Notes: generated by a model from the sequence alone, not told the origin. 64,000 nucleotides of DNA from Chrysomallon squamiferum (GCA_012295275.1 CM022670.1:5332001-5396000); one strand, 5' to 3'. Numbered from the stretch's first letter, positions 8,195 to 39,300 are shown. Numbers and translations: made by a program.

Positions 8195-8246
8195 TGCCGG
8201 AACCCGGGATTGAACCGGGGGCCTTTAGATCTTCAGTCTAACGCTC
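8195..8246 (-). pseudogene. trnF-GAA: tRNA-Phe(GAA) interrupted by a Tx1 insertion (tRNA positions 22-73 remain on this side)
   Basis: 52 nt identical to the 3' part of the intact copies, then a poly(T) at 8247 in place of TCCCAACTGAGC. The equivalent locus at 24109-24181 is intact. Confidence 0.93.
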
Positions 8247-8495
8247 TTTTTTTTTTTTTTTTTTTTTAGTTTATAAACTAATATTTATTAACTTGACATG
8301 CTTTAAAAAGTGATTTTTATGAAATAAGATATTATGAAACAATATTTAATTTACATGTTATCGAATGATGTAATTTAATTCGTTAGGAATTTAAATAATA
8401 AAATTAATAAATGAATTGACAAAAACTTACTGTATTGACATTGGATACTATAAACTAATATTAATTTTATGGTCGACATCACGTCTTGTTCGAAA

Positions 8496-8587
8496 GAGAG
8501 AGAGAGAGAGAGAGAGAGAGAGAGAGAGAGAGAGAGAGAGAGAGAGAGAGAGAGAGAGAGAGAGAGAGAGAGAGAGAGAGAGAGAGA
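8496..8587. repeat. (AG)n microsatellite inside transduced DNA
   Basis: Pure AG run. Confidence 0.95.
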
Positions 8588-33300: not shown

Positions 33301-36300
33301 CACACAGCACTTCAGTCAGTCTTACACTATTTAAGCTTGTATCACTGGTATATTTTTGATATAGCATTTTTAGTACACTTGTACATAAAATCGAGTAGGA
33401 ACGCAAACAACATAAAATAAACAAAAACATTGTCGACCGCCAGAGTCCGACTTGCTCTGTGCCGGAACCCGGGATTGAACCGGGGGCCTTTAGATCTTCA
33501 GTCTAACGCTCTCCCAACTGAGCTATTCCGGCCGACAATTCATTTTGCCGTTTATAGTTACTCAACCCTTTGAAAAACTATAATTTTTTCCCCCTCTCAT
33601 GTAGTAATATAACAATAAACTTATGATAAGCACTGTGATAGGTTTTGTTTTTTTAGGTCTAAATCGGCAAATTTCAGATTTATTTATTTTGTCTGTATAA
33701 AATTTATTATTGCCCAAACATCAGTATCTGTTGTTATAATCTTTATATCTCTAGGAATCCTTTGTTTATTTGTTTGTTTATTTATTTTATTTTGTGTTGT
33801 TTTTTACACACATTTTTATATTGAGTTAATTCAGTGAATAATCTCATCATCACTATTATTACATTCATTTATGAAACAGCTTAGAAACAACCATAGCAAG
33901 TTATTTTCAACATAAATAATTGCAATAATCAAATAATAAAGGTTACATTTTGTAAAATTATCTTAATCTTAACAAGTCGTCCATAAAATAAATGCTTTAA
34001 AAATAAAGTTGCAAGATATTATTGAATATAAACAGCAGTAAGTAGATACAAATTGTTATTATTACTATCATCATCATTATTATTATTTTATTTTAAAAAG
34101 AAAAAGAAGAAAATAATAATAAAAATTAATATTTCTGGAAGGCTGATTTGAACTCGAATACGTATAAACTTAACAATTAAAATGAAACAATGGAATTCTT
34201 CAAAATAATCGTTTGTACTGTACCATGATCTTTCCGACTTCCATGTGTTCACGAAGTCAGGATAACTATCACGCTATTTAATATAGCACTACTTTACATT
34301 CCACACAGCACTTCAGTCAGTGTGACGTAGAACAAGTGCATTTCAATTCGCTCTTCTGTTTATAACTGTTTTTGACATCAGTATAAATTTAATATTTTTT
34401 TTAAAGTTATAAAGAAAGGAAAACAAAAATAAAAAATTGGTCGACCGCCAGAGTCCGACTTGCTCTGTGCCGGAACCCGGGATTGAACCGGGGGCCTTTA
34501 GATCTTCAGTCTAACGCTCTCCCAACTGAGCTATTCCGGCCGACAATTGCGTAGATCTGTATTTAATATTTGCTTTGACGGAAGCGATAATAATATGTAG
34601 ATTTATTATTTGTAAGCACATTATTTATTTATTTATTTATTGTAAATTTTATATTCAGAATATATATTTAATACAATTTACAAAATATAATTTACACCAT
34701 ATTTTATTCATAATATATATTCTACAATCATAGTAATAATGCAATCCCATTAAATACGAATTTGTCTATTAGAAATACTGGTGTTATAACAATCGGAATT
34801 TCAGACTCTAATATTGTCTTTTAAATTTAATTTAATTAATAATGATCATTTTATTGTGCGTAAAACACACAACAAATGATGCATATCCCAACTTCATATA
34901 ACAGTTTTCTGTTAAAACCACTGAATTGCACATTAATATAATTATTATAACTTATATAAAAATAATTCATTGGATTTGAAAATAATAATAATAATACACA
35001 AGGAATGATGTTTCAAGGATAACAACTGACAAAAAGAATATCTAATAACAATATACTGAGACATTCTGCTCAGACGGATGTATAGATGGACATGTTTTTC
35101 ACTTCATGATTTCACCTTTAAAACTATTCACACCATAAGCTTCGTAACAGACTCGAAATAAAGAAAAGTCAAATGATTACATAGCAGTCAGCACTGATGA
35201 GTGAGTTATTATTATTATTATTATTAGTAGTAGTAGTAGTAGTAGTAGTAGTATTTTGACAACGAATGATCAGTATCTGAGTATGTCTCGTAATTAACAA
35301 CAGAAATAAACAATATAGCAAAATGACAATTTATCATTCTGTCAAAAGTTTTTGCTGTATATTTCGAATCACGAATACTTGTCATCAATGAGTTTTTCAA
35401 TACGGAATATTTTGTTATTATTGTGTAAACTGTGATATACCAGATGATAACGTTATAGCTAGTACTGTTCAGCAGTCTGTACGTGGAACGCAATTCTAGG
35501 TTTAAGAGAGAAGCACACATTTAACAGCAACATGGCGCCGGAACAGTCTCTTTGTAATGTCCATGTGACGTCATCAAATGATTTTACTGTTTCAAATTAA
35601 ATTAAATCAAAAAGAAATATTCCGCGATTACAAAATCCGACGTCTCAATTTAAAACCGAAAACCATCAAGAAAGAAAGAAAACAAAAATGAAGAAGTCAA
35701 AAAATATATATAATATAATATCTGTGTTTAAGAAAAAAAAATTGGTCGACCGCCAGAGTCCGACTTGCTCTGTGCCGGAACCCGGGATTGAACCGGGGGC
35801 CTTTAGATCTTCAGTCTAACGCTTTTTTTTTTTTTTTTTTTTATCTTTATTAGTATAATCACCAGTTGTACACAATTAAAATAACATTACAGCTGTAAAT
35901 AACAATAACAAAAACTATTTCCTCTCACACACTCAGTCACACTCAGTCACACTCACATGCATGCATACTTATTTATTCGGAATATTCATATATATTTACA
36001 GTATTTTATAGTATTAATTCTTTTATCCATTTCCATGATTTATCTATATTGATTATTTATAGCTTTCCAAAGGATATTTGAAAATAAGTATGTCATCTTT
36101 TAGTTCTAGAAAAATATTGTTCTTAACATATTTGTTAATAAAAATTGAAAGTTTGTTTTGAATACGATATTGATTTAGAATGATTTTAAAGCACTGATAC
36201 ATATAATTTCTAAAAAATTGTATTATATTGATATTTGTTCCTTTCATTTGAGCTATTACACGCCTTTTGAACACTGTTATTCTATAAATTGAAAGAATAA

Positions 36301-39300
36301 TATTAATAAATTCTCTCCCAACTGAGCTATTCCGGCCGACAATTTGGTGTTTTCTGTTTAGTCACTGCCTCTAAATGTATAATATTTTAATTATCATAAT
36401 CCTTTAAAACGAATGTATTGAGTTTGAAGAAACTAATAAAAACAATTAAAAATAATAATAACAATAAGTAAATCATACACGAATAAATAAATAAAAATAT
36501 AAATAAATAAATAAATAAATAAATAAATAAATAAATAATAATAATAATAATAATAATAATAATAATAATAATAATAATAATAATAATAATAACTCTTCAA
36601 ATTCGGAGCTTGGTAACAAGCCTGGATGTATGAAGAAAAGTGCTTTGTATCGGATACTACAGACTGTTAAATGGTTCAGTTTCAGAATATTTTATGTACA
36701 GTGGATGTATAAAGTACTACCTGATCGACTCCTAATTTCAATAACACTTCTGATGTGCTGCAATATATCTTGAAACAGTTAAGTTTAAAATAAAAGCCCG
36801 AATCTATGGTCAAGATGGCTTCGAAACAACGTGGTCCAAATGACGTGATCAGAACTGGATTACGTGTATTATGTTCGTTTCATTTTATATAATACAAAAT
36901 GTTATTTTTCAAAAACTATTTCAAGTAACAACAATATAACACTCGTAAAAGAATATACAAAAATAATAATAGAAGAAAACAAACAAAAACAATTGGTCGA
37001 CCGCCAGAGTCCGACTTGCTCTGTGCCGGAACCCGGGATTGAACCGGGGGCCTTTAGATCTTCAGTCTAACGCTCTCCCAACTGAGCTATTCCGGCCGAC
37101 AATTTCACAAGTCATTTCCGGTCACTTACTGTGATTGCTACTTAATCGTTTAATAATTTTCTAAAGAAAATGTGGACCTCTCCTGTCTATGACGTGCCTT
37201 CTGATTTGTTCGTGACAGTATAAACAGACCCACAATTCCTGGTGATTATGACGTCTTAGACATGTCAAATCAAGGTCAAAACGACCCGTTCCCGGTATCC
37301 GTATTTCCAGTAACAAATATCCTGACATTTAGTGTTCCAAATCTGATTAATGCAACAAGACAGAAATACTCGTAATATCAGTTTCCTCTTTTCAAGATCA
37401 TTTTTATGTAGGATATTATTATTATTGCTATTATTGTTATTATTATTATTATTATTATTAGTAGTAGTAGTAGTAGTAGTAGTAGTAGTAGTAGTAGTAG
37501 TAGTAGTAGTAGTAGTAGCAGCAGTAGTAGTAATAGTATATTTAATTTTATTTTATTTTTATTATTACTTTTTTATTATTATTACTTGTATTATTTTCAT
37601 TATCTTGTTTTTCTTCTAAATTGGCTAATACTGGTGGTGAAGAGGAATAATAAATAGTACGTTTATAAATTACATATGTGTGTGTGTGTGTGTATATACA
37701 TATAAACACAGACACAAATACACACACACACAGACACAGATACATAAACACACACTCATATATATATATATACAGATAGAGATATAGATGTGTAGATACA
37801 ACACTGACTCTTCTGTTTAGCCCGCGGGTACCTGAGTCGTGAGCCAGTTATTACAGTCCCTGGACTCAGAGCTCTGTCTGCCATTTAATAAAGACCTGAT
37901 TGAGAGCCCTGAGTCGTTTTCCTGTTTATTGATGGCCTGATTCGATTAATTTGACAAACTCAACCTCCGTGTATTTCTGACAGGCCTGTCGATCTGCCGG
38001 CATTAACAAATAATCATGTCGGCGTTTATTTATTGGGTGATCTATCAGAAATACATTTTCGAATAACGTGCGAAAGACTGCCGCTGATTTGCGTTCGTCG
38101 AAATATAATTATAAAGATTTTTTTTCTTTTTGTCTGATTTTATTTTATTATGACAAAAGGATGTATGGGAGGACCACGAGTTGATGAATAAGGTTTTTTT
38201 ATCAGAAAGAAATGTATGTAGCGACTGCCACTTATTCATATTCGTTGATAAATATATTTTTGTGGTAAATAGATGTGGGAGAAAACTGCCACTCTTTGAA
38301 GCTGGTAGAAAAAAATTAATAAATTGGCTTTGATGATTGTAGTGAGGTTTATTATGGTACATTGAATCATGTTTTATGACAAAGTAAAGAATAGGAGGAC
38401 TGACACTTCTTAACCAGGTGATAAAATATTGATGTTTATTATTTTATATACCTTAGATACATTTTTACATATACAGACGTACAATGATATATATCAATGT
38501 CATCCATACACAGAGCTAACGTATGAAAAAAAATACATGCGTAAGAGAATTATCACTGATTCGTTCTGCTGATGATAATACATGTATCTCATGTAACTTA
38601 ACGATGCATAAGAGAGCTGCCACTGAGGAAATTATACTTTTTTTAAATTACTGATTTGAGAGAGAGAGAGAGAGAGAGAGAGAGAGAGAGAGAGAGAGAG
38701 AGAGAGAGAGAGAGAGAGAGAGAGTGAGAGAGAGAGAGAAAGTTTGAGAGAGAGAGAGAGAGACTGAGAGAGAGACTGAGAGAGAGAGAGATACAGAGAG
38801 AGAGAGAGAGAGAGAGAGAGAGAGAGAGAGAGAGAGAGAGAGAGAGAGAGAGAGAGAGAGAGAGAGAGAGAGAGAGAGAGAGAGAGAGAGAGAGAGAGAG
38901 AGAGAGAGAGAGAGAGATCACAAACGTGATAGTTCTGTCTGAGATAGGATTTCAGATACGATAACGGTTTATTTGACTTGATGCGCTGCTGTGATGGTGA
39001 TGTGTTATATAAATAGACCATTGACTTCATCGACAACGGTCCTGTCACAATGTCGAGTGATACGGGAAGATTGCTCTGTAATTGCCCGGATGATCAGGTA
39101 ATACAGGTGTTGTATTTACGACCAGGTAATTTTCTGCCAATCTATCATACAGAAGATGTCGACGGAACAAACGGAATCACCATGAAAACGTCTTGTTTAG
39201 ATATTTTAACCATCAATAAGAAGAGACTGATATCGGCGATGTCGGAGCATTATAGGGGCCGCGTTAATGATTATATGCAGATGTTTCTGCCTGTTATTGA

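Follow-up and report, generated by a model that had tools for sequence, protein, structure and literature searches.

A likely Tx1-like non-LTR retrotransposon of Chrysomallon squamiferum inserted at nucleotides 22-25 within tRNA genes of more than one isotype

Several LINEs of the Tx1 group are target-specific, including Keno in U2 snRNA genes, Mutsu in 5S rDNA, Dewa in the tRNA-Leu spacer, Kibi and Koshi in microsatellites and Tx1L (Tx1D) (PMC4494074, PMC3706591); the criterion used is that more than 20% of the flanks of a family share one target (PMC4494074). In the cited parts of these reports, Dewa is the sole tRNA-linked Tx1 family described, while molluscan Tx1 elements are mentioned elsewhere in passages that do not analyse their targets (PMC11203168 and PMC10294476, the latter listing 14 oyster L1-Tx1 entries). 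Our search of published papers returned no Tx1 or APE family inside tRNA genes. Other non-LTR elements (LIN15_SM, LIN25_SM and NeSL-1_TV) do insert inside tRNA genes in sense orientation (PMC4640811). The NeSL-related planarian element LIN15_SM has 3' junctions at nt 24 (our own count) in four Arg isoacceptors; in the rows shown in file S6 of that report it is confined to Arg genes, always joins them at the same exact point and lacks a long poly(A). For LIN25_SM, one of the listed junctions falls in a tRNA gene other than Glu (PMC4640811). Dada DNA transposons also integrate inside tRNA genes, many of them at the A box (nt 8-13), and the authors credit this specificity to primary sequence (PMC8869645, PMC3706591). 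Finally, the Dictyostelium elements TRE5 and TRE3 are APE-type poly(A) LINEs that are tied to tRNA genes regardless of isotype (PMC5006619).

The window examined here is the whole stretch of 64,000 nt from Chrysomallon squamiferum (GCA_012295275.1 CM022670.1:5332001-5396000). Within it, poly(A) meets tRNA sequence at Val nt 22, Val nt 25, Phe nt 22 and Phe nt 24, always co-oriented with the element on the minus strand (Table 1; Val numbering is anchored on the anticodon AAC at 34-36). The coordinates and registers of these four junctions in the initial annotation were exact on recheck, but they are not four independent copies: three are nested inside one insertion, and the window contains two physically separate insertions. 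The element's own 3' UTR adjoins only junctions 9142 and 35822, and the ends of the two copies that carry it are 98.3% identical over 474 nt.

Table 1. Coordinates of the element, its tRNA junctions and associated features in the window
Feature	Position	Strand	Remarks
tRNA-Phe(GAA) 3' remnant, nt 22-73	8195..8246	-	putative target of the last (third) jump
Poly(A) tail, 21 nt	8247..8267	-	terminus of composite insertion
Segment B, 685 nt, likely transduced	8268..8952	-	non-coding; single copy in window; holds Val-gene downstream flank
tRNA-Val(AAC) gene B 3' remnant, nt 25-73	8953..9001	-	putative target of the second jump
Poly(A) tail, 26 nt	9002..9027	-	
Segment A, 63 nt, likely transduced	9028..9090	-	flank of Val gene A with its T-run terminator; AATAAA 9043-9048
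tRNA-Val(AAC) gene A 3' remnant, nt 22-73	9091..9142	-	putative target of the first jump
Element's own poly(A), 12 nt	9143..9154	-	3 nt past own AATAAA
Element 3' UTR	9155..9364	-	
ORF2: APE endonuclease, RT, zf-RVT	9365..13240	-	7 tblastn pieces vs P0001
ORF1 with CCHC-type knuckle(s)	13321..14413	-	frameshifted
Assembly gap, 200 N	14442..14641	.	conceals 5' UTR and 5' junction of composite
Intact tRNA-Phe	24109..24181	-	counterpart (empty) site
tRNA-Phe 3' part of second insertion, nt 24-73	35773..35822	-	T-run 35823-35842
5'-truncated copy, 472 nt of element 3' end + A20	35823..36314	-	
tRNA-Phe 5' part, nt 1-24	36313..36336	-	final two bases AG common with element

We consider the element likely to be a young L1-group, Tx1-like non-LTR retrotransposon, sense-oriented at nt 22-25 in tRNA genes of at least two isotypes, whose endonuclease probably reads the A-box/D-loop. 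Its ORF2 differs from that of an intact relative (P0001) by six frame changes and is 53-81% identical to it; the endonuclease frame (approximately 12500-13240) is open, the catalytic motifs are present and Pfam matches are to Exo_endo_phos and RVT_1. P0001 scores 299 bits against L1 ORF2p and 59 bits against R2. The N-terminal APE domain, L1-closest RT, poly(A), 5' truncation and short target site duplication (TSD) or target deletion are those of the L1 group. The zf-CCHC match in ORF1 (E-value: 0.0072, 16.8 bits) is under the curated cut-off of 20.8, though the motif is visible and later knuckles lie past the frameshift. ORF1 proteins of the Tx1 clade carry CCHC knuckles, unlike mammalian L1-type ORF1. 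The DNA-probing hairpin loop of the APE has 11 residues and, in an alignment with chimera 2v0r, matches the Tx1L loop carried there without a gap (84.6 bits, compared with 74 for L1-EN). Its length is constant across alignment A1, and the residues RSQIV are identical in the Phe/Val-associated and Asp-associated endonucleases. In a quick, midpoint-rooted RT tree, with SH-aLRT support only and built without reference Tx1 sequences or an L1 outgroup, the RT piece from the window clusters with U2- and U1-inserted loci in a group of 66 rows (support 82). It groups loosely with the U2-inserted relative L038 and the U1-inserted relative L003. Only generic Exo_endo_phos clusters were matched in the ESM Atlas.

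Like the described Tx1 LINEs, the element has two ORFs, an APE, an RT and a C-terminal zinc domain, poly(A) and a fixed site in a multicopy small-RNA gene, and it has the 11-residue hairpin loop of Tx1L. Unlike them, it inserts within the tRNA-coding sequence and destroys the gene, and it uses two isotypes while a sister family uses a third; where Dewa occupies a spacer, these insertions lie inside Phe, Val and Asp genes. The position is practically that of LIN15_SM, but since LIN15_SM has a restriction-like endonuclease, which in such RLE elements is C-terminal, and the window element an N-terminal APE instead, the likeness is one of convergence. Dada elements differ in being DDE transposons with a 6-7 bp TSD, another position and mostly one isotype per family (PMC8869645, PMC3706591). 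TRE5 and TRE3 differ in integrating outside the gene (approximately 50 bp upstream and approximately 100 bp downstream, respectively) with a scatter of tens of bp and the involvement of Pol III factors (Dd_TRE5-A 37-90 bp upstream, Dd_TRE3-A 14-228 bp downstream; PMC5006619), whereas the junctions described here are at nt 22-25 inside the gene.

The second copy is bracketed by both halves of a single Phe gene. As the bases AG are shared by the tRNA 5' part and the element, its TSD (35822/36313) is 0-2 bp. For the first insertion, a counterpart is available: positions 15967-24161 match 1-8247 with 91 mismatches and 25 gap openings in 8286 columns, and the intact Phe gene there has no Val material beside it. 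There is no other Val piece in the window; no Val 5' half occurs within these 64 kb and Val A21 is thus unobserved. With 15 Phe genes, the chance of a sense landing at Phe nt 21-25 is 75/127,600 positions, or 6e-4 per insertion. An A immediately 5' of the junction was previously taken to suit poly(A)-primed reverse transcription. We rejected this pattern as strong evidence: any A next to the nick is absorbed into the tail, and nicks on either side of it lead to the same junction. At about 2 A per 8 positions, roughly half of random nicks would look A-preceded (approximately 0.06 for 4/4, a hand estimate).

Further junctions were found in other samples. In run X3, an unmixed loose end at 9783 carries Phe nt 1-16 next to a new flank on the upstream side, and so represents a 5' junction in another Phe gene. 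The depth of the element is approximately 20-50 times that of unique flanks; only five of its junctions were identified, and all five are in tRNA genes. In a sister family (L081; 72% nucleotide identity across 3862 bp), the poly(A) abuts G22 of tRNA-Asp (A21|G22) and the 5' junction follows Asp nt 10, with a target deletion of 10-11 bp. One copy of the sister 3' end is present in genome G001, where the remainder of the contig has no further interrupted Asp gene, and 401 genomes of the phylum of G001 gave only matches of 26-41% identity, in three other genomes. No relative was found in viral contigs. The proposal that one family uses the same structural position in different isotypes is therefore borne out by the extra Phe gene and the Asp-associated sister, and we regard the targeting of nt 22-25 within tRNA genes as almost certainly real.

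The Phe and Asp sites share the same 8-nt D-loop register and a common 14-nt pattern over nt 8-21. Although derived from only two isotypes, this pattern occurs 14 times in the window and always in a tRNA gene. The conserved A-box side is 3' of the predicted bottom-strand nick. Judging from these sequences, the endonuclease probably reads nt 8-21 of the A-box/D-loop directly. It would nick the template strand beside nt 21, and the freed 3' end, usually T-terminal, would prime reverse transcription on the poly(A) tail, with small nick or priming shifts giving the spread of 22-25. Joining of the 5' end would follow, with a 0-2 bp duplication or a short deletion of the target and frequent use of 2-nt microhomology. 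A strict single nick would be expected to give a tighter spread than these 4 nt. In L1-EN grafts, the hairpin loop affects nicking specificity, but the loop alone does not transfer it, according to the part of that study cited here (PMC1950540).

Alternatively, the site may be picked by the Pol III machinery: ORF1p or ORF2p would bind TFIIIC (tauA) or take advantage of the open DNA of active tRNA genes, and an endonuclease of loose specificity would nick at a fixed distance, the transduction history described below being unchanged. This would suit the three isotypes, the differing sequence 3' of the site, the fixed orientation and the 4-nt spread. It would also suit the fact that the 8-nt core beside the nick is not tRNA-specific by itself, as 11 of its 25 sites in the window are outside tRNA genes; all 11 are unoccupied. 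The APE element TRE5-A requires an intact B box and probably also contact with TFIIIB (PMC5006619). However, we think tethering unlikely for three reasons. First, known tethered elements insert outside the gene with wide scatter, a distinction also drawn in the relevant part of PMC3706591. Second, the A-box side of the nick is conserved between Phe and Asp, and it is this common sequence that favours readout over TFIIIC tethering. Third, the site is at the edge of the A box, where bound TFIIIC is expected to cover the DNA and would presumably shield it. The initial annotation had weighed only the downstream tRNA sequence; of the two options it named, tethering is not supported as the favourite, and reading of the conserved A box is better supported by the 14-nt pattern confined to tRNA genes in the window. 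A broader and more tentative possibility is that this Tx1-like lineage uses the whole tRNA gene class, through a Pol III complex or through pan-tRNA reading of the A box, which would be new for APE enzymes, with free isotype hops (Val to Val to Phe) and the position kept across families of 72% identity.

The three nested junctions were overlooked as a transduction record in the earlier claim of independence, and it is only through this record that junctions 8246 and 9001 are tied to the family. Block 8247-14441 is probably a single insertion that grew through successive 3' transductions (Val gene to Val gene to Phe gene). Segments A and B start exactly at the ends of Val genes with a T-run terminator present, and they contain no ORF and have no second copy within the window. 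AATAAA lies 15 and 16 nt ahead of the two extra tails (2/2 versus 1/26 background tracts of A≥11, Fisher p=0.008; the rate at random positions is 5.8%). The occurrence of both a Val flank and AATAAA before the tail at each extra junction makes a single insertion likely. Segment B has AATAAA at 8284-8289, an internal A13 at 8593-8605 and (TC)n. In four other runs, segment contigs on 8278-8865 have a flank-level depth of 12-131 versus 490-3048 for the main element contigs (bins 8488-8548 and 8915-9036 were left out as skipped repeats). Contigs in three of these runs connect 8792/8800 to a Val gene end, so that this part is flank native to a Val gene. A match to 8278-8460 in one X5 contig continues for 235 more letters, and X5 has no depth on 8000-8121, which fits a source locus without the tail.

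The element would first have landed in Val gene A, then in Val gene B carrying 52+63 nt of Val gene A material, and finally in the Phe gene carrying a further 49+685 nt. Its own poly(A) signal, only 3 nt from the tail, is likely weak, and transcripts would run through the broken tRNA 3' half to the next AATAAA. Human L1 partnered 3' transductions similarly involve a weak poly(A) signal, documented read-through and a flank carried along (10.1101/2024.08.27.596794, in the part cited). In contrast to those, every piece carried here is headed by half of the tRNA gene hit in the preceding round, and the targets of successive generations can be read from the chain. The A13 tract lacks a preceding AATAAA and one X2 contig diverges at 8617; there may have been a fourth, non-tRNA hop inside segment B. 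The two Val remnants were also considered as a TSD, which was rejected as one base and the flanks differ. Sequence from 14642 onward was rejected as the element's 5' UTR, being beyond the gap and without a match to the relative's ORF2; it appears to lead into the duplicate of the window start.

It is rather improbable that junctions 8246 and 9001 instead derive from other elements, or from template jumps between polyadenylated RNAs, with the block put together by tRNA clusters recombining or in a single reverse-transcription event, and the family targeting only Val22 and Phe24. Neither junction touches the family 3' UTR, the 5' junction is behind the gap, no contig in the four runs spans the whole block and the internal A13 is unexplained. 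Nevertheless, the segments begin at Val gene ends and have native Val linkage at flank-level depth, and Pol III would not be expected to yield RNAs that begin at Val nt 22 or nt 25 and end, 63-685 nt beyond the gene, in an AATAAA-directed tail.

Less probable still is a mere preference for tRNA genes that appears strict through ascertainment in a tRNA-Phe cluster. The window was chosen for this feature, and in X3 the loose end at 9143 mixes three contigs (agreement 0.63) into a consensus not recognisable as Phe, Val or other tRNA. A metagenome scan (13/64 parts) gave at least 80 loci with 28-41% identity to the element, and among the 80 of these distant relatives listed there was no credible poly(A)-tRNA junction (B-box pattern or ARAGORN; tails of 49 inspected); Rfam analysis of 40 of the 80 matches listed identified only U1 (L003, L005) and U2 (L038). 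Against this, the Val junctions derive from loci outside the Phe cluster, and both of the finds made without seeking tRNA, the 5' junction in X3 and the sister element of L081, are in tRNA genes. An assembly artefact, suggested by the gap in the element's 5' region followed by an 8.2-kb near-duplicate, can practically be dismissed given that the tails are at defined tRNA positions with AATAAA spacing, that an X5 contig carries the Val22 junction with a longer T-run, that 21 kb separate the 35822 copy from the gap and that the pattern recurs in L081.

Readout of the A-box/D-loop sequence by the endonuclease remains our preferred explanation, and with the target, its intact counterpart and an endonuclease frame that is still open all available, the old question of readout versus Pol III tethering becomes directly testable. 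The likely nested transduction places the same element in Val and Phe genes within one pedigree, which separate copies could not prove. APE-type site-specific LINEs gain an intragenic, isotype-crossing tRNA target, at the same position as that reached convergently by the unrelated RLE element LIN15_SM. Being common to many redundant tRNA genes, the site would also merit attention as a natural safe harbour for integration.

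The initial annotation described four independent 3' junctions, all co-oriented with the tRNA gene, at valine tRNA (Val) nt 22 and 25 and phenylalanine tRNA (Phe) nt 22 and 24. Their coordinates and registers were confirmed exactly, with Val numbering fixed from the anticodon, but their independence was not, as the element 3' UTR adjoins only two of the four tails. No Val 5' half was found in the 64-kb window. The A noted 5' of each junction carries little weight, because the tail absorbs an adjacent A (random expectation ~0.06 for 4/4, a hand estimate). Insertion into tRNA genes is nonetheless a real feature: the chance that one insertion falls at Phe nt 21-25, in sense orientation and within the window, is ~6e-4. 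The second copy of the element lies between Phe 1-24 and Phe 24-73, and an AG is common to target and element, so that any duplication there is 0-2 bp.

Positions of the LINE, its poly(A)-tRNA junctions and the assembly gap
Feature	Position	Strand	Remark
poly(A)-Phe nt 22 junction	8246	minus	exact
poly(A)-Val nt 25 junction	9001	minus	exact
poly(A)-Val nt 22 junction	9142	minus	exact
Two-ORF LINE	9155-14441		domain and tblastn matches
200-N assembly gap	14442-14641		sole gap of the window
poly(A)-Phe nt 24 junction	35822	minus	exact
Second copy, 5'-truncated	35843-36314		98.3% identical to the element

The LINE has a weak CCHC match in ORF1 and APE, RT and zf-RVT domains in ORF2. ORF2 aligns to the intact related protein P0001 in seven tblastn pieces (53-81% identity), and among named taxa the closest relatives of the element proteins come from Mytilus, Patella and Holothuria, making an invertebrate host likely. 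The endonuclease has an open frame with catalytic motifs present, and its hairpin loop aligns gap-free with the Tx1L loop of chimera 2v0r. In four other sequencing runs the main element contigs have roughly 20-50x the depth of flank contigs, a depth that is no measure of copy number; the element is consistent with a young multi-copy family.

The remaining two tails are each preceded by non-coding DNA that begins at a Val gene end and is unique in the window: 63 nt for tail 9002-9027 and 685 nt (segment B) for tail 8247-8267. AATAAA occurs 15 and 16 nt ahead of these tails, compared with 1/26 background tracts of A≥11 (p=0.008); in the element itself, AATAAA and the tail are only 3 nt apart. 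At the counterpart site in 15967-24161 the Phe gene is intact and carries no Val material, indicating that the Val pieces were brought in. The simplest reading would be serial 3' transduction in the order Val gene A, Val gene B, Phe, and the composite insertion is likely a three-generation transduction record. A parallel comes from human L1, where, in the available text of 10.1101/2024.08.27.596794, sources whose poly(A) signal is weak give 3' transductions. Serial transduction is supported by the flank-level depth of segment B (four other runs), by contigs linking its right part to a Val gene end in 3/4 runs and by a contig of run X5 that continues 235 letters beyond 8278, in a run where the Phe flank of the window has zero depth. 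As counterevidence, the 5' junction is hidden in the gap and no contig of the four runs spans the block. Segment B could also hold an additional, non-tRNA hop at an A13 tract (8593-8605, sense), which has no AATAAA ahead of it and stands directly before a (TC)n run; one contig of run X2 diverges at 8617. The tract may be native, or it may mark the junction of a further insertion, into a microsatellite.

The window consists of AT-rich eukaryotic DNA, rich in microsatellites, and has 13 intact tRNA-Phe(GAA) genes. Flanking the gap, 1-8247 and 15967-24161 form a direct near-duplicate of 8.2 kb (91 mismatches/8286 columns, ~1% substitutions). They are probably two uncollapsed haplotypes, in which case the composite insertion would be polymorphic. 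Part of the Phe cluster (34427-37625) recurs in inverted orientation (61084-63045), there without one gene unit and without the insertion at 35823-36314. In all Phe genes a 3' trailer of ~28 nt (24080-24108 in one) is nearly invariant, with a short inverted repeat and then a T-run; the ~6 nt 5' leader is likewise conserved, and outer spacers differ. Right of the gap, 14642-15340 resembles a host promoter, in which CGGAAG recurs several times, with a putative short first coding exon near 15290 (+ strand), and the Phe cluster might lie inside an intron of the gene starting there.

Among the 24 loose contig ends listed from the other runs (171 further ones are unlisted), five are element-borne. 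One from run X3, at 9783, is long and unmixed and joins the element to Phe nt 1-16 with 2-nt microhomology; its upstream flank is unlike those of the 13 intact Phe genes. The loose end at 9143 mixes three contigs and has no recognisable identity, and the other three, at 8-9 nt each, are too short to be informative. When genome contigs were scanned with P0001, a single locus was returned: L081, a 36-kb eukaryote-like contig in a Spirochaetia (bacterial) MAG, which is likely contaminating eukaryotic host DNA. It contains long microsatellites and a tandem tRNA-Asp array (~500-bp units), inside which lies a LINE of a sister family (72% identical to the element over 3862 bp). The poly(A) tail of this LINE abuts Asp G22, following A21, and at the 5' end the LINE is joined to Asp nt 10, giving a 10-11 bp target deletion. 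Another related LINE is represented by an older fragment (L081:3587-4280; 42% amino-acid identity), 600 bp upstream of the array.

Poly(A)-tRNA junctions were found in 0/80 loci of distant relatives among the matches listed. In one (L003:6046-6205) the poly(A) tail abuts ~nt 20 of a U1 snRNA gene within a U1 array; the legend to the Tx1 figure of PMC4494074 does not name U1 as a target. In another (L038:4675-4885) an A-rich tail runs into a U2 snRNA gene, the kind of target used by Keno. At a third (L030:6070-6100), ~2.2 kb past the ORF2 match, an A8 tract is followed by ~14 nt resembling the U1 5' end and then by unrelated sequence. A quick tree of RT sequences with 111 rows (76/87 loci and 34/37 chosen proteins passed the length filter; P0001 represents L081), built without bootstrap or reference Tx1 or L1 rows, groups the window RT piece with proteins P0016 and P0001 (support 97). 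This group is nested in a mollusc-rich clade (support 96) and loosely grouped with the U1- and U2-inserted loci (support 82). For the two closest sister families (P0121 and P0016/P0138/P0139) the longest contig is 88,385 bp in both cases, hinting that they are located in one cluster.

In target-primed reverse transcription of non-LTR elements, the template strand is nicked and the freed 3' end primes on the tail. Here, a template-strand nick beside nt 21 would provide a 3' end that primes on the poly(A) tail. On that strand, the bases 3' of the inferred nick are CCCAACT for Phe, compared with CACCACT for Asp. The downstream differences between isotypes, noted in the initial annotation, do exist but fall on the opposite side of the nick from these similar bases. 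Of the 25 occurrences of an 8-nt core in the window, 14 lie in tRNA genes and 11 elsewhere, and a 14-nt pattern over nt 8-21, derived from two isotypes, occurs only in tRNA genes (14/14), so that readout of ~14 bp would suffice. The hairpin loop is nearly identical in the element and the L081 family; according to the portion available of PMC1950540, this loop in L1-EN grafts alters nicking specificity and alone does not transfer it. From these sequence comparisons, we somewhat favor direct endonuclease readout as the means by which the site is found. The TFIIIC/Pol III tethering suggested earlier is unlikely to direct site choice, as known tethered elements insert outside the tRNA gene, at positions scattered over tens of bp (available text of PMC5006619 and PMC3706591).

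Tx1 families target U2, U5, 5S, microsatellites, transposons and a tRNA-Leu spacer, as far as the consulted portions of PMC4494074 and PMC3706591 show; the supplements of the former may list further targets, and the available part of PMC3747384 adds none. Of other mobile elements, Dada transposons target nt 8-13 and the anticodon region of tRNA genes (PMC8869645, in part). RLE elements insert inside tRNA genes; LIN15_SM, for one, uses nt 24 in the genes for four Arg isoacceptors (PMC4640811, in part). Both LIN15_SM and our element are intragenic, the former being RLE and the latter APE. No Tx1/APE family within tRNA genes across isotypes was found in the literature, Repbase and most subscription papers being outside the scope, and an earlier description is possible. 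Formal Tx1 membership is probable, and the element behaves as a target-specific Tx1 LINE. What appears to be new is an APE element inside tRNA genes that crosses isotypes and bears a likely three-generation transduction record.
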